This document shows positions 28,304 through 58,451 of a DNA stretch of 64,000 nt, piece by piece (within the stretch, counting starts at the first letter, position 1; each line of letters starts with the position of its first letter). The stretch is taken from the NCBI GenBank assembly GCA_036505865.1, contig DASXSP010000002.1:6745-70744 (forward strand). The letters run 5' to 3'. A program made the position numbers and the translations under genes. The stretch comes from Casimicrobiaceae bacterium. Its GTDB lineage: Bacteria > Pseudomonadota > Gammaproteobacteria > Burkholderiales > Casimicrobiaceae. The notes beneath the pieces were generated by a model that searched no databases, was not told the DNA's origin, and saw nothing but the letters and a program-made list of their open reading frames with translations.

Positions 28304-28732
28304 ATGAAAGTTAGCGAAGCGATGACGCGCGACGTGCGCGTTGCGAGTCCCAATGAGACCATCCGCGACGCCGCGCGGATGATGGCCGAGATCAACGCCG
28401 GTTCGCTGCCGGTGGGCGAAAACGATCGTCTGGTCGGCGTAATCACAGACCGCGATATTGCGGTGCGCGCAGTCGCCGAAGGCAAGGCGCCGACGACGAA
28501 AATCCGTGACGTCATGAGCCCCGAAGTGCTGTACTGCTACGACGATCAGGAGTTGGACGACGTGGCAAAGAACATGGGCGACGTCAAAGTGCGGCGGATG
28601 CCCGTAGTCAACCGCGACAAACGGCTCGTTGGCATCATCTCGCTGGGCGATCTCGCGACCCACGAGGATCTCGAAACCGCCGGCGACACCGTTGCCCAGG
28701 TATCTCAACCGGGAGGTCCGCACTCTCACTAA
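28304..28732 (+). CDS. Tandem CBS-domain protein
   Basis: MKVSEAMTRDV, LVGVITDRDIAVR, VRRMPVV...LVGIISLGDLA. Confidence 0.95.
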   Translation: MKVSEAMTRDVRVASPNETIRDAARMMAEINAGSLPVGENDRLVGVITDRDIAVRAVAEGKAPTTKIRDVMSPEVLYCYDDQELDDVAKNMGDVKVRRMPVVNRDKRLVGIISLGDLATHEDLETAGDTVAQVSQPGGPHSH

Positions 28733-28742
28733 AGGGGCGCGG

Positions 28743-29090
28743 ATGGCGACGAAACATCGGCGTAGTGCAGCGGCCGCCAAGAAGCGAGGCTCCACTAAGC
28801 CGCGACGGTGGTCGCAGCAGGTGACGGAGACAAGCGACGCGCTGGATCTCGAGCGCGGCGTGTTCGCGCAGCCGAATCCCAGCTCCATTGCGCGCTCGCT
28901 AAAGCGGTCCGCCGAGCGGAGTCGGCGACGGAAGGCGGATCCCTTCCGATCCGCGATGTCGATGCTCGTGTTCTACATCAACCGTGCCGGAAAGAACCTT
29001 GGCAAGCGGCGACTTGCAGTCCTCGAGCGCGCCAAGGATGAGCTGCGGCGTCAGTTTCACCGACCGCCGCGGACGGCGAAGCACGCCTGA
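28743..29090 (+). CDS. DUF3175-like basic protein
   Basis: RWSQQVTETSDALDLE, SLKRSAERS, FRSAMSMLVFYINRAGKNL. Confidence 0.85.
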   Translation: MATKHRRSAAAAKKRGSTKPRRWSQQVTETSDALDLERGVFAQPNPSSIARSLKRSAERSRRRKADPFRSAMSMLVFYINRAGKNLGKRRLAVLERAKDELRRQFHRPPRTAKHA

Positions 29091-29095
29091 GCAAC

Positions 29096-29767
29096 GTGGC
29101 GCTGCCACTTCCAGATCGAACGGGGGCGGGTGAAATGCTCGCCGAGCGACTCGGTGGTTATGCGAATCGGTCCGATGCGATTGTCCTTGCGCTCCCGCGC
29201 GGCGGCGTTCCCGTCGGATTTGCGATCGCGGAACGTTTGCACATCGACCTCGATGTGATCGTCGTGCGCAAGCTCGGCGTTCCCTCACACGAGGAGCTTG
29301 CCATGGGCGCCGTAGCGAGCGGAGGGCTGCGGGTTCTCAATCGCGAGATCGTTGCGCTCGCTCGCATCGACGACACGACGATCGACAGAGTCGTTCGCGC
29401 CGAGCTGCAGGAAATCGGCCGCCGCGAAGCGCGTTATCGGCATGGCGCTCCTGCACCGTCGCTACGCGAGCGTACGGCGATACTCGTCGATGATGGTCTT
29501 GCCACCGGTTCGACGATGACCGTCGCCGTGCAAGCGGCGCGCCGCGAACATCCGCAGCGAATCGTCGTTGCCGTGCCCGTTGCGGCCGCGGAAAGCTGCG
29601 ACGAATTGGCGGAAATTGTCGACGAGATGATCTGCCTCTACACGCCGGAGCCGTTTCGCGCGGTCAGCGTCTGGTACGAGCAATTCGGTCAAACGAGCGA
29701 CGACGAAGTCATTGATCTCTTGAGCCGTGCGCAGTCGCACCGTCACGCCGCGCTCGATCGCCAATGA
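29096..29767 (+). CDS. Phosphoribosyltransferase family protein
   Basis: LALPRGGVPV, VRKLGVPSHEELAMGA, ILVDDGLATGSTM, VSVWYEQFGQTSDDEV. Confidence 0.92.
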   Translation: MALPLPDRTGAGEMLAERLGGYANRSDAIVLALPRGGVPVGFAIAERLHIDLDVIVVRKLGVPSHEELAMGAVASGGLRVLNREIVALARIDDTTIDRVVRAELQEIGRREARYRHGAPAPSLRERTAILVDDGLATGSTMTVAVQAARREHPQRIVVAVPVAAAESCDELAEIVDEMICLYTPEPFRAVSVWYEQFGQTSDDEVIDLLSRAQSHRHAALDRQ

Positions 29768-30453
29768 AGAGGATAGCGATGAACGCAACCTTGAGCCAAA
29801 TGGTCCAGATTCCAGCCGATGCGGGCGTCCTCGAAGGAATGCTCGAGCTGCCCGCGAACGCGCGAGGCGTCGTGCTGTTTGCGCACGGGAGCGGCAGCAG
29901 TCGCATGAGCCCGCGCAATAACTTCGTCGCCGAAAACCTCCGCGAAGGGGGCGTCGGTACGCTCCTCGTCGATCTGTTGCTGGCTGCCGAGGAAGCGGTC
30001 TATGAAACGCGATTCGATATTCCATTGCTGACGCGGCGGCTTGCCACCGTCGCGGCGTGGATTGCCGAATCGCGCGCTGCAAGCGATCTGCCGCTGGGCT
30101 TGTTTGGCGCGAGTACCGGCGCGGCGGCAGCGATCCGCCTAGCCGCTTCGGAGCGCCCGAATATCGCTGCGGTGGTTTCACGCGGTGGACGGCCGGACCT
30201 CGCTGGATCGAGCGCGCTTCAAGGGTTGCGGGCGCCGACGCTCTTCATTGTCGGCGCCGACGACCACGGCGTCATCGAGCTGAATCGGGCGGCGTATCAG
30301 GAGCTCCGTTGTCAAAAAGAGCTCGAGCTCATCCCGGGCGCGACGCACTTGTTCGAAGAACCTGGAACGCTAGCGCGCGCAGCGCAGCTGGCCCGACGCT
30401 GGTTCGAGCGCCATCTTCACGCGGACGTTCGCACGTTCGCGTTCGCGCGGTAG
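29764..30453 (+). CDS. Alpha/beta hydrolase (dienelactone hydrolase-like)
   Basis: FAHGSGSSRMSPRN, FGASTGAAAA, VSRGGRPDLA, PGATHLFEEPG; start 29764 or 29779. Confidence 0.92.
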   Translation: MKRIAMNATLSQMVQIPADAGVLEGMLELPANARGVVLFAHGSGSSRMSPRNNFVAENLREGGVGTLLVDLLLAAEEAVYETRFDIPLLTRRLATVAAWIAESRAASDLPLGLFGASTGAAAAIRLAASERPNIAAVVSRGGRPDLAGSSALQGLRAPTLFIVGADDHGVIELNRAAYQELRCQKELELIPGATHLFEEPGTLARAAQLARRWFERHLHADVRTFAFAR

Positions 30454-30459
30454 CACCCG

Positions 30460-31809
30460 ATGGCGCGCAGCGTCGATACGATCGTCGATGAAGCGATCGC
30501 GGAGTCTGCGCATCCCTTGGAAGGCGCAAGCGACGACTACGAGCCGTTCTTCAGCCTGATCGGCAACGCGCGCTTTATCCTGCTCGGCGAAGCAACGCAC
30601 GGCACGCACGAGTTCTATGCGGAACGCGCGCGGATCACGCGAGGACTAATCGAGCGTTTTGGCTTCAGTGCCGTCGCGGTCGAAGCGGATTGGCCCGACG
30701 CCTACCGCGTGAACCGTTACGTCCGCGGACAGAACCGGGATCGTAACGGCCAAGACGCGCTCGGCGGCTTTTTGCGCTTTCCGACTTGGATGTGGCGCAA
30801 TACGGACGTGCTCGCCTTCGTCGAATGGCTGCGAAACCACAACGACAGCCAACGCTGCCACGGGAAAGTGGGCTTCTACGGCCTCGATCTCTACAGCCTT
30901 TACACTTCAATCGATGCGGTGCTGCATTATCTCGATCACGCGGATCCGGAAGCCGCGCGACGCGCACGGGCGCGTTACGCGTGCTTCGATCACTTCGGGG
31001 CGGATAGCGAGCGCTACGCGTACGCAACCGCATTCGGCACGTCGCAGTCCTGCGAAGACGAAGTCATCGCACAACTGGCCGAGATGCAGCGTCGCGGCAT
31101 TCCTCCCGGCGAGGGTCTCGCCGGCGATGCGAGCGACGAGCATTTCTACGCAATGCAAAATGCTCGACTCGTGCAGAACGCCGAGGAGTATTACCGGACG
31201 ATGTTCCGTGGACGCGTGTCGTCATGGAATCTGCGAGATCGCCACATGGCGGAGACGCTCGAAGCGCTCGACGCGCACCTGTCTCGAGGCAGAGCCGCGA
31301 AGATCGTCGTGTGGGAGCACAATTCCCACGTCGGCGACGCGCGAGCGACGCAAATGGGCGCGATCGGCGAATGGACGGTCGGACAGCTTGTGCGCGAACG
31401 CTACAACGCCGAAAGCATGCTGGTCGGTTTCACAACGCATCGCGGAACGGTGATCGCGGCATCGGATTGGGGCGGCCCGGCCGAGCGCAAGCACGTACGG
31501 CCCGCGCTCGCCGACAGTTACGAAGACCTCTTTCATCGCGCCAGCGTCGGACGATTTCTTCTCCCGCTGCGCGGCGATAACCCTGCGATACGCGGCTTGC
31601 TTGCAACGCGACTGGAGCGCGCAATCGGCGTCGTCTACCTGCCCGAATCGGAACGGACGAGCCATTACTTCGACGCCAGGCTGCCGCGCCAATTCGACGC
31701 GGTCATTCACTGCGACGAAACGAGTGCATTGGAGCCGCTCGAACCGGTCGGGACGACAGCGCAAGAGCCAACGCGCGAAGCACCCGAAGCCTATCCAACT
31801 AGCCTCTAG
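30460..31809 (+). CDS. Erythromycin esterase family protein
   Basis: LLGEATHGTHEFY, AVEADWPDA, FPTWMWRN, WNLRDRHM, WEHNSHVGDARAT, LERAIGVVY. Confidence 0.92.
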   Translation: MARSVDTIVDEAIAESAHPLEGASDDYEPFFSLIGNARFILLGEATHGTHEFYAERARITRGLIERFGFSAVAVEADWPDAYRVNRYVRGQNRDRNGQDALGGFLRFPTWMWRNTDVLAFVEWLRNHNDSQRCHGKVGFYGLDLYSLYTSIDAVLHYLDHADPEAARRARARYACFDHFGADSERYAYATAFGTSQSCEDEVIAQLAEMQRRGIPPGEGLAGDASDEHFYAMQNARLVQNAEEYYRTMFRGRVSSWNLRDRHMAETLEALDAHLSRGRAAKIVVWEHNSHVGDARATQMGAIGEWTVGQLVRERYNAESMLVGFTTHRGTVIAASDWGGPAERKHVRPALADSYEDLFHRASVGRFLLPLRGDNPAIRGLLATRLERAIGVVYLPESERTSHYFDARLPRQFDAVIHCDETSALEPLEPVGTTAQEPTREAPEAYPTSL

Positions 31810-31824
31810 CTCGTAACAACGCCT

Positions 31825-32643
31825 CTAGCCCGTTACTTCCGTCGATGGACGATTGGTCGTCACGGGATATTCATGCTGCGCGGTATCAAGCGCCGCTGCC
31901 CACTGTTCCTTGGTGACCGGCACGCGCTCGGCAAGCGCTTCGCTGATCAACGTGCGCCAGTGTGCGACGACGTCAGCATGGCGCACGTCTTGCGGATGCA
32001 GTGACAAACGGAGGAGCGAACGATGCCCGGCGCGCGCGAGCTCGGCACGGATCAATGCGCGCGATAACGCACGCCGCCAACGCGTGTCGGGGCTGTAGCA
32101 GAGATTGGCCGTGCGTGAGAAACGCCAATGCGGCAGACGAAAAATCCCGCGGCGCGACGACACATAGCGGAACGGATATCCGCACTGATCGATAGCCGTC
32201 CGACTTCCTTGACCAAGTAGCCACGCGGGTGGCACAAAGCCGTACAACGGCCAACGGAGCGCCCGGAACACCTCAATGCCGTGCGCCAATCGCCATGCAG
32301 CGGCCGCTTCGTTCAGTGCGGCAAATTCGCCTTCCGCGCGAGTCAATATCCGTCGCTCGACAAACCCCCGCAGCGTACGCGGCGGCGGTTCGTCGTCGCG
32401 ATGGTGGAAGCCATGAAGCGCCAGCTCATCACCTCGCGCCAGCCGCCGGTCCAGCGCGGCGATAAAAGGGGCGTTCTTCGTGATGAGATTCTGATAATGG
32501 TAATGCGGAACGACCAATATCGTGACGGGTCGAGCGCCAAGCTCGTCGAGCATCTGCAACAGTTGTGCGCATTCCGGCCACGTCTTCGGCGCGGCGTCGT
32601 GAACGACAAACGCAACGGCGGGCGCCGCGTCATCACGCGGCAT
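31825..32643 (-). CDS. Polysaccharide deacetylase-like protein (DUF2334 type)
   Basis: VVHDAAP, LALHGFHH, AEGEFAAL, GFVPPAW, LRLSLHPQD. Confidence 0.82.
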   Translation of the reverse strand: MPRDDAAPAVAFVVHDAAPKTWPECAQLLQMLDELGARPVTILVVPHYHYQNLITKNAPFIAALDRRLARGDELALHGFHHRDDEPPPRTLRGFVERRILTRAEGEFAALNEAAAAWRLAHGIEVFRALRWPLYGFVPPAWLLGQGSRTAIDQCGYPFRYVSSRRGIFRLPHWRFSRTANLCYSPDTRWRRALSRALIRAELARAGHRSLLRLSLHPQDVRHADVVAHWRTLISEALAERVPVTKEQWAAALDTAQHEYPVTTNRPSTEVTG

Positions 32644-33751
32644 ACCGCGCCGTTCCTCTCAATTGCCAGCTTTGCACGGCGCGGTACAGCTCGAGAAGGC
32701 CATGGATCACCGCGTCCCAGCTGTAGCTTCGCTCGACGTGAGCTCGTGCGCGACGTCCCATCGCGTCGAGGTCACGCTGATAAAACGCGTGAATCGTCGA
32801 GGCGAGCGAGCCGGCGTCGCGCGCCGGCGCGAGCATGCCCGTTTCCAGCGTCACGAGCTCCGGCGCAGCGCCCGCCGCAGCCGCAATAACGCCACGTCCG
32901 CAGGCCATTGCCTCGAGCAAGACGAGTCCGAACGTTTCCTGGTCGCCGGCGTGCACGAGTCCGTCGGCGCTCGCGATGATTCGCGCAAGCTCACGCGACG
33001 AGCGCTCATAGGGACGCACGATGACGTTCGGCTGCCGCGCGATGCGATCGCCCGTGCCGAGCATTAACAAGTAATAGGGGCGCCCGAGCTTGCGGAACGC
33101 CGACAACAGCACAGACAGATTCTTCTCGCGCGCGAACCGTCCGGCATAGACCAGAATTCTCGCACCTTCGCCCAAGCCGAGCTCCCGCCGCAGCGTCCTC
33201 GTTCTTGCCGAAGGGTTGAATGTCTTGAGGTCGACGCCGAGCGGACGGACGACGACGTTTTCGATGCCCCAGCCGACCAGGCGGCGGCGCATGAATTCGC
33301 TCGGCGTGAGCACCACATCACACCGCTGGTAGAACGAACGGAGATACGCGCGCATCACCATCGCAGGAAGAGAACCGAGTCGCCGCGCAACGGCACCAAC
33401 TACGTCGCTGTGGCAGAAGGCAACCAGCGGGATGCCGAGCTCGCGCGCCGCGTGCCACGCAACCCACCCGACGAGCCCGGGATCTTCCGCCTCGATGATG
33501 TCGGGTTCGTAGCGAAGCATCGCCTCAAACCATGGCGATACGCGCCACGGCCAGCGGCGAGACGCATCGTTTGGCGCCCACGTGGCGATGAAGTGCTCGC
33601 CCTCCTCGCCGATGCCGTCGAACGGTCCCGGAACGAGCAGCGAATGGCGACACGCCGAGTTACGTGCGAGCCAGCCTCGCTTTTCCTTCAAGTAGCGCGC
33701 AACGCCACCGCCCATCGGGCCGTACAGCATCGTCGTGTCGAGAACGTGCAT
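32633..33751 (-). CDS. Glycosyltransferase family 4
   Basis: GGGVARY, YAGRFAREKNL, DGLVHAGDQETFGLVLLEAMACG; start 33751 (alternative 33862). Confidence 0.92.
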   Translation of the reverse strand: MHVLDTTMLYGPMGGGVARYLKEKRGWLARNSACRHSLLVPGPFDGIGEEGEHFIATWAPNDASRRWPWRVSPWFEAMLRYEPDIIEAEDPGLVGWVAWHAARELGIPLVAFCHSDVVGAVARRLGSLPAMVMRAYLRSFYQRCDVVLTPSEFMRRRLVGWGIENVVVRPLGVDLKTFNPSARTRTLRRELGLGEGARILVYAGRFAREKNLSVLLSAFRKLGRPYYLLMLGTGDRIARQPNVIVRPYERSSRELARIIASADGLVHAGDQETFGLVLLEAMACGRGVIAAAAGAAPELVTLETGMLAPARDAGSLASTIHAFYQRDLDAMGRRARAHVERSYSWDAVIHGLLELYRAVQSWQLRGTARYAA

Positions 33752-33940
33752 GTCGATGGGCGCGCCGTTGGGCGCGCGCCGCTCAAGAGCGCTGGCCGGC
33801 GACACCTTCCCCATCGCGGGCCAGGACCGCATCTTCGACATCGCGTTCGTCGCCACGTTCACCGCCGCACAGCCGGCTAGCAGAGCGCTAGCCTCTGCGA
33901 TCGGCCGGCAAGCAGCTGACTGCCCTCCTGCTGGTTCTTG

Positions 33941-34240
33941 CTACTTTTTATCCTTCTTTTCCTCGGTTCCCGGAGTCGCGGACGGTGTCGGCGTCGGCGA
34001 TGAGGGAGTCGCTGAGCTCGACGATGGCGGCGTCGGTGGGCTTGCGCTCGACGGTGACGATGGCGTCGACGGCGCAGGCGACGAGGATGACGATGACGAC
34101 GGAGGTGTCGTCGGAGCCGTAGATTGAGCGGTCGACGATGACGGCGGAGGGGTCGTCGACGTCGTCGTTTCGCGCTGGCATCCAGCCGCTCCGAGCACGA
34201 GTGCAACACCGATTACGAGAGACAGTTTGCGGTTCGACAT
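33941..34240 (-). CDS. Small Pro/Ser/Thr-rich lipoprotein
   Basis: MSNRKLSLVIGVALVLGAAGC lipobox followed by a low-complexity tail. Confidence 0.8.
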   Translation of the reverse strand: MSNRKLSLVIGVALVLGAAGCQRETTTSTTPPPSSSTAQSTAPTTPPSSSSSSSPAPSTPSSPSSASPPTPPSSSSATPSSPTPTPSATPGTEEKKDKK

Positions 34241-34296
34241 TGGTGGACCTCCAGCTTGGTTACCGAAATGGCGGCAACGAACTACCTTCGATGCCA

Positions 34297-34312
34297 AGCA
34301 GGATCAGTGCCA
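34297..34312 (-). promoter_or_regulatory. sigma54 promoter for the lipoprotein (and possibly GT4-deacetylase) unit
   Basis: Minus strand TGGCACTGATCCTGCT, GG-N10-GC. Confidence 0.72.
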
Positions 34313-34419
34313 TTGGGAGACGCGCGCAGAGTGTGATGGCTAGGCTCGGATTGCGCACGAATGGAACATCGCGGCGGTCGGCGCCGCGCGCGCTTCCGCG
34401 AAATTCGCCCCTGCGTAAG

Positions 34420-34430
34420 GTAATAGTTAC
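34420..34430. promoter_or_regulatory. GTAA-N3-TTAC palindrome (candidate activator site 3)
   Basis: GTAATAGTTACCACG about 110 nt upstream of the 34297 promoter; shares the CACG flank with site 1. Confidence 0.45.
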
Positions 34431-34511
34431 CACGCCGCTTTGAAACACGTAGCAACCGCCGCTACGCTAATTCCTACAGAGCCCTTGCCGCTGTGGCACA
34501 CCGCATTGCCG

Positions 34512-36512: not shown

Positions 36513-36772
36513 GTCGATCTCCCGTGTCGAAGCGCCGAATACTACGCGTTTGTAGTTATTTCGCCCACAGCGCAAAGCCGGTCGACTCGATGAACCAAGG
36601 ATGCGCCGACATGATAAAGCGCTGCGCGTGTCGCGCTCCGTTCGACGCTCGCAAAAAGGTAAAACACACCGCGATTCCGCGAAAGGCACGAAGAGCGGAA
36701 CTGCGAAAGAGACGACGAAACGATTGCTCTTTTGCCCAACAGCAAACCCGTTGCAAGAAGGAGACACCCACG

Positions 36773-37945: not shown

Positions 37946-37952
37946 GGTCGGA

Positions 37953-41957: not shown

Positions 41958-41972
41958 CGCACACCGCCGCCG

Positions 41973-43472
41973 TTAGCTGCGGAGCAGTGCGAGCCGCGCG
42001 AATTGTTCCAGCGCATAGTCGACGAATGCGCGTGCTTTATCGAGATCGTGACCGAAAGCGGGACCGTTCATTGCGCTCGCCAGCGCCACGCGATCGCGTG
42101 TTCCATCGAGGAGCGTCAGCAACTGCCGGGCGTGAATATCGGGCAAGCGGGCGCGCATGTGCAATAACGTCGTAACTTCATCGTTGCCCCGTGCCTGAAG
42201 CCTTGCAAGCGGGCTTGCGACGGGACGCTGTGTCACAGTGGGCGACACTGAAGGCGGGTGCACGTGCAACGTCACCACCGCCGACACGAACGCATCGGTC
42301 AGAATCGCTTCGAGCGGACGCGGCAGCCCGCCAACCCTCTGCCGGAGGTTTTCCACCCGTGTCGCGCCCGGCGAACCCTGCACCAGCGCGTCGAGCAGCA
42401 TGCGAACCGGGCCGTTTTCGCCGTTGGCCGGATCGAGCGCCCGCGCCAGGTCGCCGACCTTCCCCGCCTCTGCCGCGCGCAGCAGTGAAGGGTCCGCCGA
42501 TACATGCATCTCGCCGATGCGCTTCGGGTGTAACGTGATCGCGCTCTGCGACTCTCCCTTCTGCAACAGCGATTGACGAAAGCGTCGCAGACGAACGAAG
42601 TCGAGATATTGCTCGCGCGATAACGGGTCCAACGTGGCGAGGAACGCGCGGGCGTCCGCTGAAACGCCGGCAGCGCTCATCGAATGTACGTCGGCTTCCG
42701 CCAGATACTTAAGCCCGAAGCGACCCGCATGGGTGACAAAGTCGCGAAAATAAAACGGGTCGTTCGGGACGGCGAGGTCGTCGTGACACAACGCGCTGTC
42801 GGTCCGCTCCGCGATCGCGCGAAACTCCGCGCGTACCGCTTCGTCCGCGTCGTACCAAGCCTTACCGCCATCGGCGAGGATTCGCGCGAGCTTGCGCGCT
42901 TCGCTAAGGCGCATGCGCGGATCGTCGATCCGATCGACGTGCGCATGAAGCACCTCCCACGCCGCCTGCCGCACACGGCAGCCCGGGAGCGCGTTGAAGC
43001 TCACGAACATGACGCCGTTCGAAGAAAGCCGCGCGTTCACGAGCGCAAAAAGCGCGTCGCGAATCTGTGCGGGCACCCATGAATAAACACCGTGCGCGAC
43101 GATGTAATCGAATGTTCCGTGCGACGGCGAAAGCACCGCAAGGTCTTCTTCGACAAGCGTGATGTTCGATAGCCCCAATTCCGCGATCGTCCGACGGCCG
43201 GCAGCAAGCGCGCGCGCCGACAGATCGCAACCGACGAATTCTGCCGACGGCAAGCTCATCGCCATCGGAATCAGATTTGCGCCGTCGTTGCAGCCGACCT
43301 CGAGCACGCAGCATTGCGCGACATCGGGCGGATGCATGCCGAGAAACGTCGCGACCGTCGCCAGGCGATCCGGATGCGTCACCGCGTGCGGAAGCGCGGC
43401 GTACGGAATTTCGTCGTAGCGCGCAGCGAGTGCGACGTTGCTCGTGTCGCGGCTGTCGTTCGTCGCCGTCAC
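41973..43472 (-). CDS. Class I SAM methyltransferase with methyltransferase regulatory domain
   Basis: VLEVGCNDGAN, FDYIVAHGVYSWVP, VSFNALPG, HDDLAVPNDPFYF, EQYLDFVRLRRFRQSLL. Confidence 0.88.
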   Translation of the reverse strand: MTATNDSRDTSNVALAARYDEIPYAALPHAVTHPDRLATVATFLGMHPPDVAQCCVLEVGCNDGANLIPMAMSLPSAEFVGCDLSARALAAGRRTIAELGLSNITLVEEDLAVLSPSHGTFDYIVAHGVYSWVPAQIRDALFALVNARLSSNGVMFVSFNALPGCRVRQAAWEVLHAHVDRIDDPRMRLSEARKLARILADGGKAWYDADEAVRAEFRAIAERTDSALCHDDLAVPNDPFYFRDFVTHAGRFGLKYLAEADVHSMSAAGVSADARAFLATLDPLSREQYLDFVRLRRFRQSLLQKGESQSAITLHPKRIGEMHVSADPSLLRAAEAGKVGDLARALDPANGENGPVRMLLDALVQGSPGATRVENLRQRVGGLPRPLEAILTDAFVSAVVTLHVHPPSVSPTVTQRPVASPLARLQARGNDEVTTLLHMRARLPDIHARQLLTLLDGTRDRVALASAMNGPAFGHDLDKARAFVDYALEQFARLALLRS

Positions 43473-45112
43473 GGCTGGAATTGGTACGGTGGCAACGTGG
43501 AGAGTCGCGGGTCGTCGATAGGTCCGCCGGTCGTGAAGTGATACAAGCTTTGCCAGCGACGATCGGCGATGCCCAGGAGCTCGTGCATTTCATCGTCGAA
43601 AAAGCAGCCGATTCCGGTGGAGCGCACACCGGCCGCCTCGGCTTCGAGATAGAGCACGTGCCCCAACATGCCGCATTCCCAAAACATACGCCGATAGCGC
43701 CACGGCGCATCGGCGGCTCGCTCGACCGGCGCCAACATTCCCAATGCAAAACACGAATCGGCTGCAATGTCCTGATGACAGCAAATCAACTTCGCGATTT
43801 CTCGGAGCTCATAAGGCAACAACAAGTACAGCGGCAGATGCGCGGGCCCCCGTTTCTCCCATAGCCATTCCAGTCGCAGCGTCCGCTGAACCTCGGCCAG
43901 CGCCGAGGAATCACGTAAAAGCATGTACAGACCGGCGTCAAGTCCGCGCACACGATGGACGAGTATCGCCGCGTGAACTTCTGGCGAAGAGTCGAACGCA
44001 TGCCACGGCGGTGTGTTTGCGCGCGGCAGGAGCGCATCGAGCATCGCGCAAAAGTGCGCGCCGCTGATGTGCGTTTCGCCATCGAAGTCGACTGCGCTTC
44101 GACGCTGGCGCGCGAGCGTGGCGAACGGCAGATCCAACGGCGGATCCGCGGGTGCGGGCAGCGGCATCGCGAGCGCTGAAGCAGAGTCATTCGTTATTGG
44201 CTTCTGCGACGCGCGATGGATCGAATCGATATCCGGCCACTCCACGTGCTCGGCGCTCAATCGATTGGCGCGGCCCGACCACGTTGCGTTTTGGAGCAAC
44301 TCGCGCATGCGCTCGACGTCGGGATGCGAAGATCCAGCGCCGATCCAAAGCAACGTATCTGCCGCTTCTTTCTCCGCAGCGTCGAAATCCGCGTCGCGGT
44401 CGATACCGAGCACCGCCGCAACCGATTCGTCGTCCGGCGACGAAAGTAAGCGCGCCTCCCAGCCGAGCGCGGCAGCGGCGTAGCTCAACGCCGCGATCGC
44501 GTGTCCACAGTCGTGTTGGCAATAGCGCCACGCCCGCATGCCGTATTTCCAGGCTTCGCGCCAGTAGATGGACGTGATGCCGACGACGACGCCGTCGTTG
44601 CCAAACGCCGGCGGCCAGCGCGGATCATCGATCGCCGCGCGCCGCTCGAGCACGTGGTCTCGGCTTAGGTAGTGATAGACGCCCGCGGATAAATCCGGCA
44701 ATGACGGACAAACAAGATAAGCTTCGGTGGGATGCAGATTGCCGCTCGATGGATTGCAACGGAGGGACCAGCGACTGCCGCCGAACGCTTTCCACGCCGA
44801 CAGCCCCAGCGACATCTCGAACAGCATCGCGATGCCGACGAGATCGAACGCGTGGGCTAATCCGACTTCGCCGCGACGAATAGCGTTGTAGCGGCTCGCG
44901 AGTTTATCCGCCGCGAACGGCAACTTGACGGACTCCGCGCCGGCGAATCGTCGAAACGGGTCGGGCTGATTCGCCCAATCCAACCGGCCCGGACCGGATG
45001 CGTAACGATTGAGGCGGTGCTTGCTCGCCTCGTGATAGTCGAATAATGCCGACGTTCGACTTGATTCGCCGGCATCGCCGATCAAGCCATTCGCTCCAGC
45101 TCGGGACTCCAT
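43469..45112 (-). CDS. SagB/ThcOx-like two-domain nitroreductase
   Basis: YHEASKH...LDWANQPDPFR, RCNPSSGNLHPTEAY, WKYGMRAWRYCQHDCGH, RRSAVDF, TGIGCFFDD; true start may be TTG at 45085 overlapping the fba stop. Confidence 0.88.
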   Translation of the reverse strand: MESRAGANGLIGDAGESSRTSALFDYHEASKHRLNRYASGPGRLDWANQPDPFRRFAGAESVKLPFAADKLASRYNAIRRGEVGLAHAFDLVGIAMLFEMSLGLSAWKAFGGSRWSLRCNPSSGNLHPTEAYLVCPSLPDLSAGVYHYLSRDHVLERRAAIDDPRWPPAFGNDGVVVGITSIYWREAWKYGMRAWRYCQHDCGHAIAALSYAAAALGWEARLLSSPDDESVAAVLGIDRDADFDAAEKEAADTLLWIGAGSSHPDVERMRELLQNATWSGRANRLSAEHVEWPDIDSIHRASQKPITNDSASALAMPLPAPADPPLDLPFATLARQRRSAVDFDGETHISGAHFCAMLDALLPRANTPPWHAFDSSPEVHAAILVHRVRGLDAGLYMLLRDSSALAEVQRTLRLEWLWEKRGPAHLPLYLLLPYELREIAKLICCHQDIAADSCFALGMLAPVERAADAPWRYRRMFWECGMLGHVLYLEAEAAGVRSTGIGCFFDDEMHELLGIADRRWQSLYHFTTGGPIDDPRLSTLPPYQFQP

Positions 45113-49748: not shown

Positions 49749-49760
49749 GGTCGGAACGTA

Positions 49761-51161
<1,401 letters not shown>

Positions 51162-51257
51162 AGGGAACTCCGTGAGAATCTTGCGGTTCAGATTAACAAC
51201 TATCGCATAGGGACAGGTGCGCCAAGAAAATCCATTGAAAACCGGAGCAACACTACG

Positions 51258-52388
51258 ATGCCGCAGCGATCGATAACGCCGTCGCGGGAGGTCACGTTGT
51301 TTTTGTGCGGCGATGTCATGACCGGCCGGGGGATCGATCAAATTCTTGCGCACCCCTGCAACCCGCGTTTGCTGGAGAGCTACTGCCGCTCGGCGCAGGA
51401 CTATGTCGCGTTAGCGGAGCGCGTCGCGGGGCCGATCGTCCGTCCGGTCGATTTCGCGTACATCTGGGGTGATGCGTTGGCGGAACTCGATCGGATGCGC
51501 CCCGCGGCACGGATCATCAATCTCGAGACAGCAGTAACAGTCAGCGAAGACGTGTGGCCGAACAAGACTGTCCACTACCGAATGAATCCAGCGAACGTCG
51601 GCTGCCTGACCATCGCGAAACTGGATTGTTGCGTTCTCGCTAACAACCATGTGATGGACTGGGGATTGTCCGGACTCGCCGAAACGCTCGCTACGCTGCG
51701 GCAGGCGGCGCTGCGCTGTGCGGGCGCCGGTAACGATGAACGCGAGGCGCGAGCGCCCGCCATTATCGAAGTGCCGAACACAGGGCGAATCCTCGTGTTT
51801 GCTTGCGGAACCGCAAGCAGCGGCGTGCCGGTGGGATGGGCCGCGAGTGGCGAACGGCCAGGCGTCAATCTGCTGCGCGATTGTTCACCGCGATCAGTTG
51901 AGTCGATCGCACGTCAAGTGGCTTCCTATAAGCGTGACGATGACGTGGTCCTACTATCGATCCACTGGGGAAGCAACTGGGGCTATGACATCCCCGCTGC
52001 GCAGCGTACGTTCGCGCGGGACATGATCGATTCGGCCGGCGTTGACGTCGTGCATGGCCACTCGTCGCACCACGTCAAAGGCATCGAGGTTTATCGCGAC
52101 AAGCTGATTCTCTACGGATGCGGCGATTTCATCGATGATTACGAAGGCATTCAGGGCTACGAAATTTTCCGCGCCGACCTAGGGCTCATGTACTTTCCGA
52201 CGATCGACGTCGCAACGGGACGATTGCGAAGCGTGCGAATGATGCCCACGCGCACGTCGTGCTTGCGCGTCAATCGCGCCGACGAAAGAGCGGCGGAGAT
52301 CCTGACGACAACGCTCAATCGCGAAGGCAAGCCATTCGGAACCGCCGTCGAACGACAGTCCGACAACGCGCTTGCGCTTCAATGGTGA
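51258..52388 (+). CDS. CapA-family metallophosphatase-fold protein
   Basis: [47 protein letters not shown]. Confidence 0.9.
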
Positions 52389-52510
52389 TGTCGCGTCAAT
52401 GCGACGTGTTGCGCCGGTCCGACGACTGTCGACCGGCTGTCGCCAATTAACGCTTCGCTGCGCTCGCGCGTGATACGCTGCCGGCGCCCTCAGAGGCGTA
52501 GGGAGACGCT

Positions 52511-54460
52511 GTGCATAATTCAATGCGGTTCGTGCTCGCGCGGTCCACGTTCGCGCGACGGTGCGTGTTCATTGCTCTAGCGCTGTCGTGCACATGCGCT
52601 CTATCGGCGCCAAACCGCGCGGCCTGCGAAGCAGCCGACAGAACGATACGCGCAGCCACGCCCTTGTCGCAATGTCGCACGCCGAGCGGCGACGTTGTGA
52701 TCGGCAGCGGCAATTGCGTGAACGTGTTCGTCGATCAATCGTATACGGGGAAAGACTCGGCGCTCGGTGCGGTGACGATCAACGCGGGCGGTTCGCTGTT
52801 CGTGCCCGACGCATCGGTCGAAATCGAGGCGAAGTCGATCATCGTCGTCGGTGTGCCTGGCAACGGGCCCGCTGCGCAGGCGCTCTTGCAAATCGGCACC
52901 GCAGCGTGTCCGATCGGTACGCTTTCTCCGGAAAATCACGTGACGCTGCGTCTTTTGGGCGAGCGCCCCGCCGCGACGAAGATCCATCAACACGATCACA
53001 AATCGGGCGACGACTGCACGACGATCGACAAAGGCATCGGCGTCGGCGTGAATGGACAGCTTCGCCTTTTCGGCGCACGCGGCGTCCCGCCCGAAGGCTA
53101 TAGCTGGGCCGCATTGTCGCGCCCAGCGGGGCCGATCGCGTATCAAGTCCGCGACAACCGCAATCCGGACGCTCATCCGGAAAAGATCGGTGCGCCGGTT
53201 CCCCACGGCGGCGAACTCACGCTCAATGTCGAGCACGACGTGACGAAAGGTGGCAATCCCTGGAAGCCGGGCGATTGGATCGTCGTGGGCACCACGAGCT
53301 TTTCCCCGTTCGAATCCGAGTTCGTCCAGATCCAGAATGTCGTCAAGGAAGAGCACGGCAGCCGCATCGTGCTGAGCGCGGCCACGCCGTTGCGCCACTA
53401 CCATTTCGGCGGTCCGGATCCCGGTCCGGCGCATGACATCGGCTCGACGCCTGGAGCGGCTTCGCGCAGCTTTAACCTTTCCCAATCGCACAACTTCGGC
53501 GTCGATGAACGCGCCGAAGTCGGACTGATCAGCCGCAACATCCAGCTGACCGCGGCAACACCGAAGATCGCGACGCCCGGCGATTCCTCTCTGCATTGGG
53601 GCGGTGAGATGCGCTTTTGCAAGGGCTACGACGAAGTCAGCGTGCAAGGTGTCGAGCTCGAGAAATTCGGCAAGGAGAATCTCGGGAGCTATCCGATCCA
53701 CTTTCATCTGGCCAACGCCTCGAAGTGGACGCCCGGCACGCTGCCTGCGCCGCCGACGGGCCGGCACCTGATCGACGCGAACTCAATCCATCACACGTAC
53801 AACAAATGCGCGACGATTCATTCGACGTCGGACATCACGCTGTCGAACAATGTTTGCGCACGGATCACCGGTCACATGTTCTATCAGGAGATCGGTGACG
53901 AATTCAGCTCCTCGTTCAAGAACAATTTGGGCCTCGGGATCATGCTGAACGGCTTCGGCCTCGCAGCGAATGTGCGCCGCACGCCCGACAATCTGGTGAT
54001 GAACTACTGGGAAGGTGACTACCTGGGCCGCGCGATCGATTTCGACGGGCTCAAAGTCGCGAACACCGACAACGGCACGAACCCGGTAATAGGACAGTGT
54101 TACTCGAAAAATCCAAATGCGGGTGGTCTCGAAGGTGCGGTCGCCACCTCCGGCGCTTCGTGTCCAGCCGGCAAGATCCTCTTCGAGCCACCCACGGGAT
54201 TCTGGATCGTCAATCCGACGGCGATGCTCGAGGGCAACTCGGTGGGCGGATGCCAAGGTCTCGGTAAGGGATACTGGTACGTCGCGCCGACGAAGACACC
54301 CGGCGATGCGCGTTTCGCGCTCAAGTTCCAGCCGGTCGGGCGCTTCGTCAACAATCGCGTGCACAGCTGTTACGACGGAATTTTCGGCGAAACCGATGGG
54401 GGGTGGTCACCGAGCAACTCCAGCCGAAAGTCGACGGCGATAACATCGCATTCAACTTGA
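52511..54460 (+). CDS. G8-domain CEMIP/TMEM2-like protein, N-terminal half (frameshifted gene)
   Basis: Signal-like N-terminus; G8 domain; WKPGDWIVV, RAEVGLISRNI, GSYPIHFH, SIHHTYNKCATIH, TGFWIVNP, FVNNRVHS are collinear with CEMIP/TMEM2 as recalled. Confidence 0.82.
   Translation: MHNSMRFVLARSTFARRCVFIALALSCTCALSAPNRAACEAADRTIRAATPLSQCRTPSGDVVIGSGNCVNVFVDQSYTGKDSALGAVTINAGGSLFVPDASVEIEAKSIIVVGVPGNGPAAQALLQIGTAACPIGTLSPENHVTLRLLGERPAATKIHQHDHKSGDDCTTIDKGIGVGVNGQLRLFGARGVPPEGYSWAALSRPAGPIAYQVRDNRNPDAHPEKIGAPVPHGGELTLNVEHDVTKGGNPWKPGDWIVVGTTSFSPFESEFVQIQNVVKEEHGSRIVLSAATPLRHYHFGGPDPGPAHDIGSTPGAASRSFNLSQSHNFGVDERAEVGLISRNIQLTAATPKIATPGDSSLHWGGEMRFCKGYDEVSVQGVELEKFGKENLGSYPIHFHLANASKWTPGTLPAPPTGRHLIDANSIHHTYNKCATIHSTSDITLSNNVCARITGHMFYQEIGDEFSSSFKNNLGLGIMLNGFGLAANVRRTPDNLVMNYWEGDYLGRAIDFDGLKVANTDNGTNPVIGQCYSKNPNAGGLEGAVATSGASCPAGKILFEPPTGFWIVNPTAMLEGNSVGGCQGLGKGYWYVAPTKTPGDARFALKFQPVGRFVNNRVHSCYDGIFGETDGGWSPSNSSRKSTAITSHST
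54398..54403 (+). other. G6 homopolymer at the frameshift junction
   Basis: gat GGGGGG tggtc; G7 or G4 would fuse the two ORFs into one frame. Confidence 0.85.
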
Positions 54461-56568
54461 TCGCGCGCTTCGACGGCTTCACCGCCACGCGGATTCGCAA
54501 TCGCGGCGTGTGGATGCGCGGACCGTGGTTCGTATTCGACAATGCACGAGCCGCTACGAGTCGCGAGGCGATTACGATGGTGACCGCCGGAGGCCTTGAT
54601 GGCAGCTCGCCCGCGTTTTGGGGCTTGCTCAAAAATTCAGTCGTCGTCGGGCTCTCGAAGAACAACGTCGACCGCTGGGGACCGTGTCCGGAGCCCACGG
54701 CGCAGGAAGGGCCGGGTTGTGTCGATCGGAATACGGAAGCTGCCGATCTATTCGAGAAAAGCTATCCAAGTCCGGCGTGGAACTTCGCCGGCTTTTATAT
54801 CTATGACGGCCCCGTGCGAATCCACGACACGCGATTCGTCAACTTCCGCCACGACATTACGCCCTTGCTCACCGTGACCGACGCGGCGTTCCTCCAAAGC
54901 TTCAAGTCCTACTACTCGGCGAGCGTCTACGAAGGCGACGCCGCACTGGGATGGTTCCAAAACAACCAGAGCGCGTATCCGACGACGACCGAGGTCCGTG
55001 GGCTCACCTTCGAGGGCACGAACCTCCGTCACCAGGTCTTTACCGACAAAGTCAATTTCGGAAACTTCGATGATGGCGACAAGAACACCGCTGTCATCGA
55101 TCGAGACGGTTCGCTCACCGGGTATCGCGTCGTCGATGCCAGCGGCTTGCAAGCCAAGCACCGTCATGCAGTCTCGCTCAATAACTTGCCGTTCAATGCG
55201 GTCGCCAACGCCGCCGACGAATGCGCATCGACGGGCGCACAGGATGCGGCGGCCGAGGATCGGCCTACATCGTTGATCTCGCCGGGCGATCTGGCGACGC
55301 TCGAGTTCGGCGCGCTCCTACCACCTGACGGCGTCGTTACGGCTGCAACGGGGTCCGACCCGAACATGACGCAGCTGATGACGTTCACGCAGGACGTCAA
55401 GAATCGGTTCGACAAGCACGCGTCGATGACGCTGCACAGCCGCAACAATCAAGGGATTTGGGAGCCCAAGATCCATGGCGGTCGCGGCTACACGGTGTCG
55501 GTCGCATCGGCAGCCGCCAGCAATCCTGGACAAGCGGGACCGGTGGGCATGCCTCGCTACACCAACATCGGGTTGACCGACGTCGTCAAGCCGGACATCG
55601 CAAGCAAGCCGTTCTCCGCGCGAATCGGCGTGTGCTACACGAATGTCGGCGGGACGCATCCCCCGGCGGAATTCGCGATCTTGCGCGGCTTCAAGTCATG
55701 GGGCGGCAACGCGGTCAACTACAACGATCCCACATTGCGGAAATCGTTCAACCGGCTCGTCAATCTCTACAACGGGCAAACGTGCCATAACCTGGACTCG
55801 CAGTCGAATCGCGTGCGAACACCCGGTCAGGACAACACCGATCCGATGAAAGGCTGTCCGGCCGACGGCGTCCTGCCGTTGGAAAGCGCCGCAAGTTGTA
55901 CGGCGGCGGGTGGCAAGCCGGCGCGATCGCGAGCCGACCTTCCGCAGGACGACGCCTGCATCTTCGAAACGCGCGCGCTCAAGAAAGCAGAAAATCTGGC
56001 GGAGTTGACCGATCCGGTCAGTGGCGCGCCCGTCGACCTGTACAAGTATTACTACGATGCGAAAAGCGGGATGCTTTCCTTCTATGTCGTGCAGGACATT
56101 CCCAATGCGCAGGCCGCGTCGCCGCACGGAAGCTGCCGCGGCCGGCCCGACGACGATCCGGCCTGTCCGAATCCGGCCGATCCGATCTATCCCGAAAGCT
56201 ACTACGGATGTCCGGCGCAGGGCTGCATCACCTACACGGTGCGTATTGTTGGAGGCGATTACACGCCAGGGGCATCGGCGTGCGGTGACGACGGCGATCC
56301 GTCGAGGATGACAGATGCGACCGCGATCTACCGCTATAAGCGCGATGAACAGGGCCGCGGCATTTATGAACTCGATCCGCCGAAAGACGAGTTCCAGCTC
56401 GCGTATGTTCCGTCTCCGTCGAGTCCACACGAAGCGGTTCGACGTGGCGACCGCGTCGACCCGATGCCGACGGTCAGCTCGAAGGGCTTCGACCACGTGA
56501 AGGCCAAATACGCACCGTATTGCGCGGGTCAGCCGCCCACGCCCGGCGGCGGGCGCACCGGCGAATAG
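54403..56568 (+). CDS. CEMIP/TMEM2-like protein, C-terminal half
   Basis: RNRGVWMRG, LKNSVVVG, GFYIYDGPV, DGDKN...DGSLTGY continue the CEMIP/TMEM2 alignment; no credible independent RBS or signal peptide. Confidence 0.82.
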   Translation: MVTEQLQPKVDGDNIAFNLIARFDGFTATRIRNRGVWMRGPWFVFDNARAATSREAITMVTAGGLDGSSPAFWGLLKNSVVVGLSKNNVDRWGPCPEPTAQEGPGCVDRNTEAADLFEKSYPSPAWNFAGFYIYDGPVRIHDTRFVNFRHDITPLLTVTDAAFLQSFKSYYSASVYEGDAALGWFQNNQSAYPTTTEVRGLTFEGTNLRHQVFTDKVNFGNFDDGDKNTAVIDRDGSLTGYRVVDASGLQAKHRHAVSLNNLPFNAVANAADECASTGAQDAAAEDRPTSLISPGDLATLEFGALLPPDGVVTAATGSDPNMTQLMTFTQDVKNRFDKHASMTLHSRNNQGIWEPKIHGGRGYTVSVASAAASNPGQAGPVGMPRYTNIGLTDVVKPDIASKPFSARIGVCYTNVGGTHPPAEFAILRGFKSWGGNAVNYNDPTLRKSFNRLVNLYNGQTCHNLDSQSNRVRTPGQDNTDPMKGCPADGVLPLESAASCTAAGGKPARSRADLPQDDACIFETRALKKAENLAELTDPVSGAPVDLYKYYYDAKSGMLSFYVVQDIPNAQAASPHGSCRGRPDDDPACPNPADPIYPESYYGCPAQGCITYTVRIVGGDYTPGASACGDDGDPSRMTDATAIYRYKRDEQGRGIYELDPPKDEFQLAYVPSPSSPHEAVRRGDRVDPMPTVSSKGFDHVKAKYAPYCAGQPPTPGGGRTGE

Positions 56569-56574
56569 CGCCCA

Positions 56575-58005
56575 TCAGCCTTTGATACAAACGAGCGGCT
56601 CCAGCCGCGCAACTTTATGCGCGAGGTGCGCGCGGTGCGCGGCCTCGACAACCGCCGAAACATCCTTGTAAGCGCCGGGGGCTTCTTCGGCGACGCCGCG
56701 CATCGACGCGCTTCGAATCAGAATGCCCCGACTTGCAAGCTCGTCGACGACTTCGCGGCCGTGCCAATGGCGCTTGGCCTCGTTCCGACTCATCTCGCGA
56801 CCTGCCCCGTGACACGCCGAGGCGAACGCTTCGCTCATGCCGCGTTCTGTTCCGACGAGTACGTACGACGCCGTCCCCATGCTGCCGCCGATCAGGACCG
56901 GTTGGCCGATTTCGAAAAACTCCGCCGGAAGATCCGGATGGCGCGGGCCGAACGCGCGCGTCGCGCCCTTGCGATGCACGTACAGTTCCGCTTCGCGGCC
57001 GTCGATCCGATGTTTCTCGACCTTGCACGTATTGTGCGAAACGTCGTAGAGCAATGTAAGCGTTGCGCCGGGCAGGACAGCGTGAAACGCCTCGCGCGTC
57101 ATCTGCGTGAGAATTTCGCGGTTGGCCAACGCGCAGTTGATTGCCGCACGCATCGCGCCAAGATAGCGCTGCCCCAATGGCGAACGCACAGGCGCGCAGG
57201 CGAGCTCGCGATCGGTGACCGTTACGCCCGCAGCGTTCGCCGCGATCGTCATCTCGCGCAAAAACTCTGTGCCGATCTGATGACCGAGCCCGCGCGAGCC
57301 GCAGTGCACGCTGACGACAACGTCGCCGTTACGTAGCCCGAACGCGTTCGCGGCTGCGTCATCGTACGTTTCGACGACGTGCTGCACTTCGAGATAGTGA
57401 TTGCCCGAACCAAGCGTCCCCATCGCGTCGCGCTGCCGAAGTTTTGCGGCTTCGGACACCGCTGCCGGATCCGCGCCGGCCGCCATTCCGCCCTCCTCGA
57501 TTCGCGCCAGATCTTCGCGCTGCCCGTAGCCGTAATCGACCGCCCAGCGCGCGCCGCCGCGAAGCATCGCGTCCATCTCGTTCGGGGAGAGTTGCAACGC
57601 GCCTGTGCTGCCCACGCCCGCCGGAATGCGTTTGAACAGCGTATCGGCGAGCTGATGCTTCGCGGGCTCGATGTCGGCGCGTTTAAGACCGGTCAGCAAC
57701 GTCCGCACACCGCATGAGATATCGAACCCCACGCCACCGGCGGATACCACGCCGCCGTCATCGGGATCAAAGGCGGCGACACCGCCGATGGGAAATCCGT
57801 ATCCCCAATGTGCGTCGGGCATGGCGAACGAGCCTTTGACAATGCCGGGAAGCGCGGCCACATTGGTGATCTGCCCCAACACTTTGTCGTCCATCGCCTG
57901 GAGCAATTCTTCGTCGGCGAAAATGACGCCAGGCACTCGCATCGCGCCCGTTTGCGCGAGCTGCCATTGGTAATCGCTGATACGTTGCAATCGACTTGGA
58001 TCCAT
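56575..58005 (-). CDS. rtcB: RtcB RNA ligase (archaeal/eukaryote-like long subtype)
   Basis: MPDAHWGYGFPIGG, VGFDISCG, GTLGSGNHY, HCGSRGLGH, YDVSHN, HRKGATR, SACHGAGR, EEAPGAYKD. Confidence 0.96.
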   Translation of the reverse strand: MDPSRLQRISDYQWQLAQTGAMRVPGVIFADEELLQAMDDKVLGQITNVAALPGIVKGSFAMPDAHWGYGFPIGGVAAFDPDDGGVVSAGGVGFDISCGVRTLLTGLKRADIEPAKHQLADTLFKRIPAGVGSTGALQLSPNEMDAMLRGGARWAVDYGYGQREDLARIEEGGMAAGADPAAVSEAAKLRQRDAMGTLGSGNHYLEVQHVVETYDDAAANAFGLRNGDVVVSVHCGSRGLGHQIGTEFLREMTIAANAAGVTVTDRELACAPVRSPLGQRYLGAMRAAINCALANREILTQMTREAFHAVLPGATLTLLYDVSHNTCKVEKHRIDGREAELYVHRKGATRAFGPRHPDLPAEFFEIGQPVLIGGSMGTASYVLVGTERGMSEAFASACHGAGREMSRNEAKRHWHGREVVDELASRGILIRSASMRGVAEEAPGAYKDVSAVVEAAHRAHLAHKVARLEPLVCIKG

Positions 58006-58037
58006 TCTTCAGCTTTAACCGAGTGGCAAACGATGCC

Positions 58038-58451
58038 TCACACGTCGACAACGCATTGCGCGAGCCACATGCCATCGTCGCGCCGAGTCATCGATAACTG
58101 GGAGTACGTCGCGGCTTTGACTTCGACTAACGGCTCATGGCGTTCGCGATCGACGGCTTCGCCCCATGCTTTCGCTTCCAGCGCATGGTCGTGAAGCGCG
58201 ACGGTGAAACGGCCGAACAACAGATTGCGCGTCGCCATTTCGTAGATCAGTGCATTCAACCAGTCGATGAGCAGCAGTTCGTCATCCGGCGCGTCACGGC
58301 GAATCTCCACGAGCGTATCGGCGCGAACATGTAGCGGATCGGTGACGACCGCTGTCAACGCAAGCGCGACTTGCTCAAAGGCATCCTCGCGCGAAGCGCC
58401 GAGTCCGCGAACCCCGATATCGGCACCATGCCTAAAGTGTTCCCAGGGCAT
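58038..58451 (-). CDS. Archease
   Basis: [37 protein letters not shown]. Confidence 0.95.

Follow-up and report, generated by a model that had tools for sequence, protein, structure and literature searches.

Overlap across phyla with the genes of the mycobacterial DosR (DevR) regulon is partly published, in the Burkholderia lxa locus and in the Balon operons, and a review (PMC5309233) cites Selvaraj et al. (2012) on DosR proteins being conserved among bacteria from the environment. According to Sass et al. (2013, PMC3721108), the low-oxygen-activated (lxa) locus of Burkholderia cenocepacia, required for anoxic persistence, overlaps the DosR regulon in several families, namely alpha-crystallin, nitroreductase, sulphate transporter, ribonucleotide reductase, phosphofructokinase, cation ATPase and USPs. 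Stress operons for ribosome hibernation built around Balon, a protein of the baeRF/Rv2629 type, have been described in different phyla, with Rv2629, RaiA/Rv0079, Hsp20 and RtcB genes, near Hrp1 (Helena-Bueno et al., 2024, PMC10901736). The DosR blocks Rv0569-Rv0574c, Rv2028c-Rv2032 and Rv2623-Rv2631 (PMC5309233) have phosphoribosyltransferase (PRTase), hydrolase, Ere, CapA and RtcB subfamilies in common with the DNA analysed here, a stretch of 64,000 nucleotides from Casimicrobiaceae bacterium (assembly GCA_036505865.1, contig DASXSP010000002.1), which we will refer to as the window. Its genes for a CBS pair, a PRTase, an alpha/beta hydrolase, an Ere-family hydrolase, a CapA-like protein, RtcB and archease had been interpreted in an earlier note, made from the sequence alone, as a dormancy or hypoxia toolkit shared across phyla and wired to a different regulator; Pfam finds every family named there.

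Our reading, to which we give a probability of about 0.6, is that the locus combines three pieces, each with its own transcription, of a set of genes recurring in different phyla, and that only the operon running from the CBS pair to Ere is a tight unit; the proximity of the pieces within 30 kb is better read as loose stress-maintenance clustering than as one regulon. The lxa locus, likewise betaproteobacterial, represents the same general idea of a low-oxygen toolkit shared with a Gram-negative organism, but it is one contiguous 50-gene island, whereas the pieces in the window are dispersed, and the families listed differ. The terms "erythromycin," "CBS" and "RtcB" are absent from the text of the lxa paper, and its one "phosphoribosyl" concerns the metabolism of 5-phosphoribosyl pyrophosphate (PRPP); CapA and archease were not among the terms searched for (PMC3721108). 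Ere and phosphoribosyltransferase genes are not mentioned in the Balon paper (PMC10901736), and no Balon-type gene was found in this genome, either as a PF18844 match or by tblastn with mycobacterial baeRF2, the other baeRF families lying outside that search. The literature searched held nothing relevant on the PRTase/hydrolase/Ere module, on fusions of Ere with protein-L-isoaspartate O-methyltransferase (PCMT), or on Ere in general-stress regulons. The genes of the set are as follows.

28304-28732, + strand: stand-alone CBS-pair protein, first gene of the operon (Pfam CBS, 1e-26)
28743-29090, + strand: DUF3175 protein, between the CBS and PRTase genes, overlooked in the earlier note (Pfam DUF3175, 4.8e-42)
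29096-29767, + strand: type-I PRTase of the TT1426 type (Pfam Pribosyltran, 1.2e-12)
29764-30453, + strand: alpha/beta hydrolase, dienelactone-hydrolase-like (DLH-like; Pfam Abhydrolase_11)
30460-31809, + strand: Ere-family hydrolase (Pfam Erythro_esteras, 2e-134)
51258-52388, + strand: CapA-like (PGA_cap) protein, in an open reading frame (ORF) at 50883-52388 whose most likely start is 51258 (Pfam PGA_cap, 2e-78)
56575-58005, - strand: RtcB RNA ligase of the archease-neighboured type (Pfam RtcB, 6e-167)
58038-58451, - strand: archease, with its start as read from the sequence (Pfam Archease, 7e-37)

The spacing between successive genes from CBS through DUF3175, PRTase and hydrolase to Ere is 10, 5, -4 and 6 nt, and the five genes (28304-31809) are therefore taken as one operon. 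Archease lies 32 nt upstream of RtcB, the pair being a second operon, and the CapA-like gene is a lone transcription unit divergent from asparaginyl-tRNA synthetase (AsnRS). The long AsnRS ORF, 49761-51353 on the minus strand and identified from named homologues, the best of which is 93% identical and belongs to a Casimicrobiaceae bacterium, in keeping with a betaproteobacterium of that kind, overlaps the CapA ORF; the likely AsnRS start at 51161 (466 aa) leaves a divergent intergenic region of 96 nt before CapA. The three pieces form no contiguous island, as some 20 genes unrelated to the set intervene on both strands, among them those for a pyrroloquinoline quinone (PQQ) dehydrogenase, an S8 protease, an extracytoplasmic function (ECF) sigma/anti-sigma pair, AsnRS and a CEMIP-like protein. 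By tblastn, PRTase, hydrolase, Ere, CapA, RtcB, archease and DUF3175 each have one match in the 4.17-Mb assembly, all of them inside the window, and the CBS family has a few paralogues in the genome. The naive probability that three single-copy loci fall inside 30,148 nt is 1.6e-4, a figure weakened by the post-hoc choice of families from a list of about 50 genes and by the very many windows scanned; more weight was therefore given to the evidence from other genomes.

The mycobacterial members of the set sit in hypoxia/DosR-type islands. For the comparison, 151 Mycobacteriaceae genomes were sampled; of the M. tuberculosis proteins themselves, Rv2626c alone was compared, through its PDB chain. 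Ere was found in 39 of these genomes, about ten of which carry it in open frames of 665-750 aa. One locus (L020) has a 680-aa PRTase-Ere fusion between an Acg-type nitroreductase and PfkB, near AAA_33, PPDK and a CtpF-like ATPase; another (L038, genome G125) shows the order S30AE hibernation factor, RtcB, archease, 455-aa PRTase-hydrolase fusion, baeRF2, WS/DGAT and HSP20, and is of the Balon-operon kind. Both fusion architectures were verified by Pfam, and the DosR blocks 2, 7 and 8 as published fit them (PMC5309233; PMC4410610 for the domains of Rv2030c). The Mycobacteriaceae copies thus sit among Acg-type nitroreductase, PfkB, HSP20, baeRF, WS/DGAT and S30AE genes. Where PRTase-Ere and PRTase-hydrolase are fused in the DosR regulon, the window has separate adjacent genes, as the earlier note had stated, and its one PRTase gene matches both fusions, being 47% identical to the N-terminal halves of the two types. 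The Ere protein is 56% identical over 427 aa to the 680-aa fusion and the hydrolase 52-57% identical to the C-terminal half of the 455-aa type; CapA is 44-49% identical to Mycobacteriaceae copies, present in three of six genomes, and RtcB 54% identical to the copy in the G125 island, the other four genomes with a match having only a 34-36% paralogue.

In the reverse direction, tblastn of the mycobacterial Ere, PRTase, hydrolase, CapA and RtcB proteins against the genome of the window gave the window gene as the sole match each time. A maximum-likelihood tree of 46 Ere domains has two supported clades, one of which (clade B, 95/94) unites the window, its relatives, an Oxalobacteraceae metagenome-assembled genome (MAG), Acidobacteria, Cyanobacteria and all six Mycobacteriaceae fusions. 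Given the identities, the single reverse matches and the Ere tree, the best hits therefore do not fall in other subfamilies for five of the seven families. The subfamily match proposed earlier is looser for the remaining two. Window and mycobacterial archeases both match Pfam PF01951, with no direct tblastn match at 1e-3; the CBS pair resembles Rv2626c (1xkf/1y5h) moderately, in a full-length alignment of 63 bits (2.9e-16) that ranks fourth in the PDB behind a best match to 9z6r (124 bits, 2.8e-35), and CBS pairs are so widespread that a match of this strength does not establish orthology.

Outside mycobacteria, the core module of PRTase, hydrolase and Ere, in part with CBS, is solidly conserved. 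Among 80 metagenome loci with Ere orthologues at 57-70% identity, many of them on short contigs, PRTase was found in 58, hydrolase in 35-36 and a CBS-pair gene near Ere in 12. In the 43 loci where 1.5 kb or more of sequence precedes Ere, the PRTase gene is found upstream and in the same orientation 36 times, at a median gap of 54 nt, and nine loci hold possible PRTase-Ere fusions. Unbiased clustering of the neighbours adds SRPBCC, PRPP synthetase, HSP20 and DUF2267 (5-6 loci each); this single-linkage clustering of ORFs was swamped by shadow ORFs in high-GC DNA, and annotation was limited to the non-shadow clusters. USP was seen near Ere in just one of the 80 loci, many of which are short. Further arrangements are Crp, DLH, PRTase, Ere, DUF5335 and CBS in an acidobacterium, PRTase, Ere and S30AE in a cyanobacterium, and USP, Ere, hydrolase, PRTase, PPDK and PfkB in locus L157, an order reminiscent of the mycobacterial island. 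Conservation of the PRTase-Ere pair extends over four phyla or more.

The other two pieces join this module in some places. In the Oxalobacteraceae MAG GCA_002415335.1, about 17 kb hold an RtcB remnant, archease, isochorismatase, S30AE, CapA, Ere, USP, HSP20, LonC and HSP20, with CapA, beside Ere, 60% and archease 57% identical to the window copies. The remnant (L121:10510-10798) consists of two short RtcB tblastn fragments, of 68 and 51% identity, directly after an intact archease, and looks like a decayed RtcB. Locus L139 has the order PRPP synthetase, BLUF, hydrolase, S30AE, archease, RtcB, AAA33-like and PRTase, and a DUF3175 copy, 71% identical, stands directly beside RtcB-archease in G533 (L133); archease adjoins RtcB in 10 of 12 loci of the window's phylum. 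As a control, 20 random 20-kb regions of the same genomes (400 kb in total) gave panel matches in one locus only, L166:14070-14917 of G190, where a CBS-pair gene stands beside a PRC-barrel gene; members of these two families also flank the regulator in the window.

Co-occurrence was assessed with one-sided Fisher tests in 400 genomes of the window's phylum, the numbers of positive genomes being 33 for Ere, 15 for hydrolase, 8 for CapA and 17 for this RtcB type. Significant co-occurrence was obtained for hydrolase and Ere (p = 2e-7), hydrolase and CapA (p = 8e-5), Ere and CapA (p = 1.3e-4) and CapA and RtcB (p = 3e-3), and each of the eight CapA-positive genomes has, in addition, Ere or RtcB of this type (post-hoc p = 3e-8). 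CapA is accordingly linked to the operon at the level of the genome, and RtcB-archease is tied to the module only in some lineages. The claim of a toolkit shared across phyla holds in part: recurrence is well above the control and the core module and its linkage to CapA stand, but RtcB does not co-occur with Ere.

Several results weigh against the reading of a recurring set in three pieces, and some of them are what would be expected from coincidence, that is, if only the CBS-to-Ere operon were a unit and CapA and archease-RtcB were unrelated housekeeping or stress genes, singled out by a reader who knew the DosR list. Within 10 kb of Ere in the 80 metagenome loci, CapA and archease were found in none and RtcB in one, with many of the contigs short. 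In the 400 genomes, there is no co-occurrence of Ere with RtcB (p = 0.78) or of hydrolase with RtcB (p = 0.13), 13 of the 17 RtcB-positive genomes lack any other family of the set, and in the other CapA-positive genomes CapA is far from Ere and RtcB, or on a separate contig. The p values carry no correction for phylogeny, the five genomes with Ere and CapA representing four genera, and with so many windows scanned an event of probability 1e-4 to 1e-2 is expected somewhere. Furthermore, Acg-type nitroreductase, PfkB, baeRF family 2 and USP are unmatched in this genome at the sensitivity used, and HSP20, S30AE and DGAT genes are located on other contigs. The binding site proposed below for the activator is a guess from conservation among sequences 84% identical overall, and we know of no member of the PRTase, hydrolase or Ere clades with a known biochemical activity, the nearest PDB entries being structural-genomics proteins. 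Against coincidence stand the independent Oxalobacteraceae island, in which CapA adjoins Ere and archease and the RtcB remnant lie within 10 kb, the two unrelated lineages whose RtcB-archease genes are enclosed by PRTase and hydrolase genes, the 8/8 association of CapA, and the control regions nearly devoid of panel matches; we consider it unlikely.

Concerning regulation, the following features lie upstream of the operon and of archease.

25072-25653, - strand: hemerythrin-domain protein, divergent from the PRC-barrel/activator block
25765-25779, + strand: sigma-54 -24/-12 promoter-like site TGGCACAGCGCTTGC, 111 nt before the PRC-barrel gene
25890-26414, + strand: PRC-barrel protein (Pfam PRC, 9e-17)
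26728-28131, + strand: NtrC-type response regulator (Pfam Response_reg, 8e-24; Sigma54_activat, 3e-66; HTH_8)
28162-28172, + strand: palindrome GTAAC-N-GTTAC, candidate activator site, about 70 nt upstream of the -24 element
28236-28251, + strand: sigma-54 promoter TGGCATGCGCGTTGCA, 53 nt before the CBS start, with one mismatch to TGGCAC-N5-TTGC
58458-58472, between the archease and UDG/SMUG-like starts: palindrome TTTGAC-N3-GTCAAA, directly before the archease start codon

The CBS-to-Ere operon is predicted from these elements to be sigma-54-dependent, with an enhancer-binding activator. The sequence TGGCATGCGCGTTGCA is among only 10 strict sites in the genome and among the four placed correctly before a gene, and the palindrome GTAAC-N-GTTAC occurs a single time in the 4.17-Mb genome, which suggests a dedicated activator. 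Two relatives (L123 and L124, with Ere 82-84% identical) keep the order PRC-barrel, activator, CBS, DUF3175, PRTase, hydrolase and Ere, and in the intergenic alignment with both, promoter and palindrome are blocks of perfect identity. The activator combines a receiver domain, a sigma-54 AAA+ domain with a GSFTGA loop and a Fis-type helix-turn-helix, and is 94% identical and in the same position in these relatives. No kinase gene was found beside it; rpoN is present, on contig C51. The site at 25765-25779 is the sole zero-mismatch sigma-54 match in the window and reads GTGGCAyAsCGCTTGCGAT in L124, so that the PRC-barrel gene is a possible second target of the activator. A loose search for the sigma-54 pattern (TGGCAC-N5-TTGC, up to two mismatches) returned 80 matches against 71 expected and was uninformative, so that the strict genome-wide scan and the conservation in relatives were used instead; the two-mismatch sites that precede RtcB, within the archease gene, do not exceed chance. 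As for TTTGAC-N3-GTCAAA, a second genomic occurrence was discarded as a regulatory twin, since it lies inside a PpiD-like coding region; the archease site is the only intergenic copy.

These elements bear on a stronger interpretation, in which all seven genes, perhaps with a SagB-like nitroreductase, would be one dormancy/hypoxia regulon, a DosR equivalent under another master regulator. It would explain why the single-copy loci all fall inside 30 kb (at the naive P given above) and why the combination of Ere, hydrolase, CapA and this RtcB type is not repeated in the sample of 400 genomes, and it agrees with the position of DUF3175 beside RtcB in G533, with the PRTase and hydrolase genes flanking archease-RtcB in genome G432 and in the mycobacterial G125, and with the hemerythrin gene that adjoins the regulator block. 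What speaks against it is that both the sigma-54 site and GTAAC-N-GTTAC, the latter unique in the genome, are absent upstream of CapA and archease, that about 20 unrelated genes on both strands separate the pieces, and that the DosR box TTSGGGACTWWAGTCCCSAA has zero matches in the window at up to three mismatches. The three pieces having no promoter element in common, the idea of one co-regulated island was not borne out, and we judge a single regulon to be distinctly improbable. The proposal of wiring to a different regulator stands for the operon, whose promoter is of the sigma-54 type with an NtrC-type activator, in place of the DosR box of the mycobacterial regulon, but it does not extend to CapA or archease-RtcB, which lack either element. 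The neighbouring regulators vary by lineage, the Crp-type gene of the acidobacterium being one example.

The proteins of the module keep their PRPP-loop and catalytic motifs: the PRPP loop of the PRTase is intact (ILVDDGLATGSTM), the hydrolase has a GASTG nucleophile and an ATHLF histidine, and Ere keeps the His/Glu/His columns that are invariant over 20 Ere orthologues. The closest solved relative of the PRTase, and its sole PDB relative, is TT1426 (1wd5, 4e-36); that of the hydrolase is 2o2g, an Anabaena "dienelactone hydrolase" (5e-55), and that of Ere is the Bacillus cereus Ere-family group 2qgm/2rad/3b55 (4e-26), far more distant than the mycobacterial fusion. None of these structures has, as far as we know, an assigned physiological substrate. 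Taken at face value, the Pfam matches to Erythro_esteras (2e-134) and Pribosyltran would make Ere a resistance gene for an esterase of macrolides (erythromycin), and would make an ordinary nucleotide-salvage enzyme of the PRTase. Such a literal annotation is barely credible: Ere reaches 52.8, 28.7 and 20.8 bits with the NCBIfam models of EreB, EreA and EreD, against cut-offs of 750-800, and its match to EreC is confined to residues 25-90, while the PRTase is under the cut-off of every named salvage family in NCBIfam (the best being uracil PRTase, 28 bits against 114) and its PDB relative TT1426 is uncharacterised. The preservation of the PRTase-Ere pair across phyla, and its fusion in mycobacteria within stress-type islands, also argue against it.

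A different clue to function comes from the fusion partners of the Ere domain, which are either PRTase or the protein-repair enzyme PCMT. In 11 of 20 proteobacterial loci (L148-L152, L154-L156, L158, L159 and L162), the Ere orthologues, at 47-53% identity and forming the majority of clade A, are extended at the N-terminus by about 190-360 aa (some 240 in the typical case), within total frames of 660-790 aa. The extensions carry PCMT motifs by eye, and that of L152, the sole one scanned, matches Pfam PF01135 at 4.9e-62. Given this fusion in the sister clade, the genes would most likely serve to maintain or mend aged macromolecules while cells are not growing, rather than to resist antibiotics, and the neighbouring hibernation factors, HSP20, Lon and RtcB fit such a role. 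A maintenance or repair function in non-growing cells is thus favoured, the chemistry being proposed from sequence.

In the mechanism that we propose, an unlinked kinase would phosphorylate the NtrC-type activator, which would then bind the GTAAC-N-GTTAC palindrome and open the sigma-54 promoter. The PRTase and the two hydrolases would most likely cooperate, as a complex or in consecutive steps on a 5-phosphoribosyl or PRPP-linked substrate, because of the fusions, the intact PRPP loop and catalytic motifs, and the neighbouring PRPP synthetases; the CBS pair may serve as a nucleotide-sensing subunit. The CapA-like gene, as second piece, would act from its own promoter region and with a statistical link to the operon across genomes, and archease-RtcB, as third piece, would be an RNA-repair pair loosely tied to the rest. 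PRPP synthetase (ribose-phosphate pyrophosphokinase) genes adjoin PRTase, Ere or hydrolase genes in L139:4959-6479 and in five metagenome loci, e.g., L092:151-1137, a recurrence that fits a PRPP-using reaction.

A bolder version, which we offer as possible but doubtful, is that the PRTase, the DLH-like hydrolase and the Ere-clade hydrolase make up a system, not described previously, that repairs or de-modifies aged macromolecules when cells do not grow. CBS and DUF3175 would be accessory to it, and in function the whole would be tied to the resealing of RNA by RtcB-archease and to the hibernation of ribosomes; Ere might act on ester- or imide-type lesions, as the PCMT fusion suggests, and the PRTase might supply or recognise a phosphoribosyl group. 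If true, Rv2030c and Rv0571c would represent this system in mycobacteria, in fused form. To our knowledge, Rv0574c has so far been tied solely to the poly-glutamine content of the cell wall.

In a review devoted to the dormancy regulon of M. tuberculosis (PMC5309233), Rv2030c and Rv0571c appear as "not yet characterized." The domains of both types appear here as separate, apparently co-transcribed genes in environmental bacteria, and the split genes, together with the PCMT-fused sister clade of Ere, provide systems from non-pathogens and a biochemical hypothesis that can be tested. The toolkit is modular, with PRTase/hydrolase/Ere(/CBS), CapA and RtcB-archease linked to differing degrees, and each lineage appears to plug the modules into a regulator of its own, in this case sigma-54 with an NtrC-type activator.

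Other features of the window and of the loci compared deserve mention. The first 17 kb of the window are devoted to phenylacetate catabolism and ABC transport, and the hemerythrin-domain protein could be a sensor or buffer of O2 or NO. Between the operon and CapA lies a SagB-type double nitroreductase of 547 aa (43469-45112, - strand), and genome G350 has a 42%-identical copy (L138:14501-16138) some 4 kb away from RtcB-archease; the nitroreductase may be an extra accessory of the stress set, or a coincidence. In the Mycolicibacterium bacteremicum assembly, in which no Ere was found, a contig of 264 bp and low coverage (L007, NZ_MVHJ01000083.1) has an exact 60-nt match to the rifampicin-resistance-determining region of the M. 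tuberculosis-type rpoB, and is probably contamination. Finally, an Aas-like gene of some 940 aa, whose domains are of the PP-binding, AMP-binding and acyltransferase types, recurs next to the hibernation factor (L002:3776-6574 and L139:12526-15381) in two stress clusters that are unrelated to each other.

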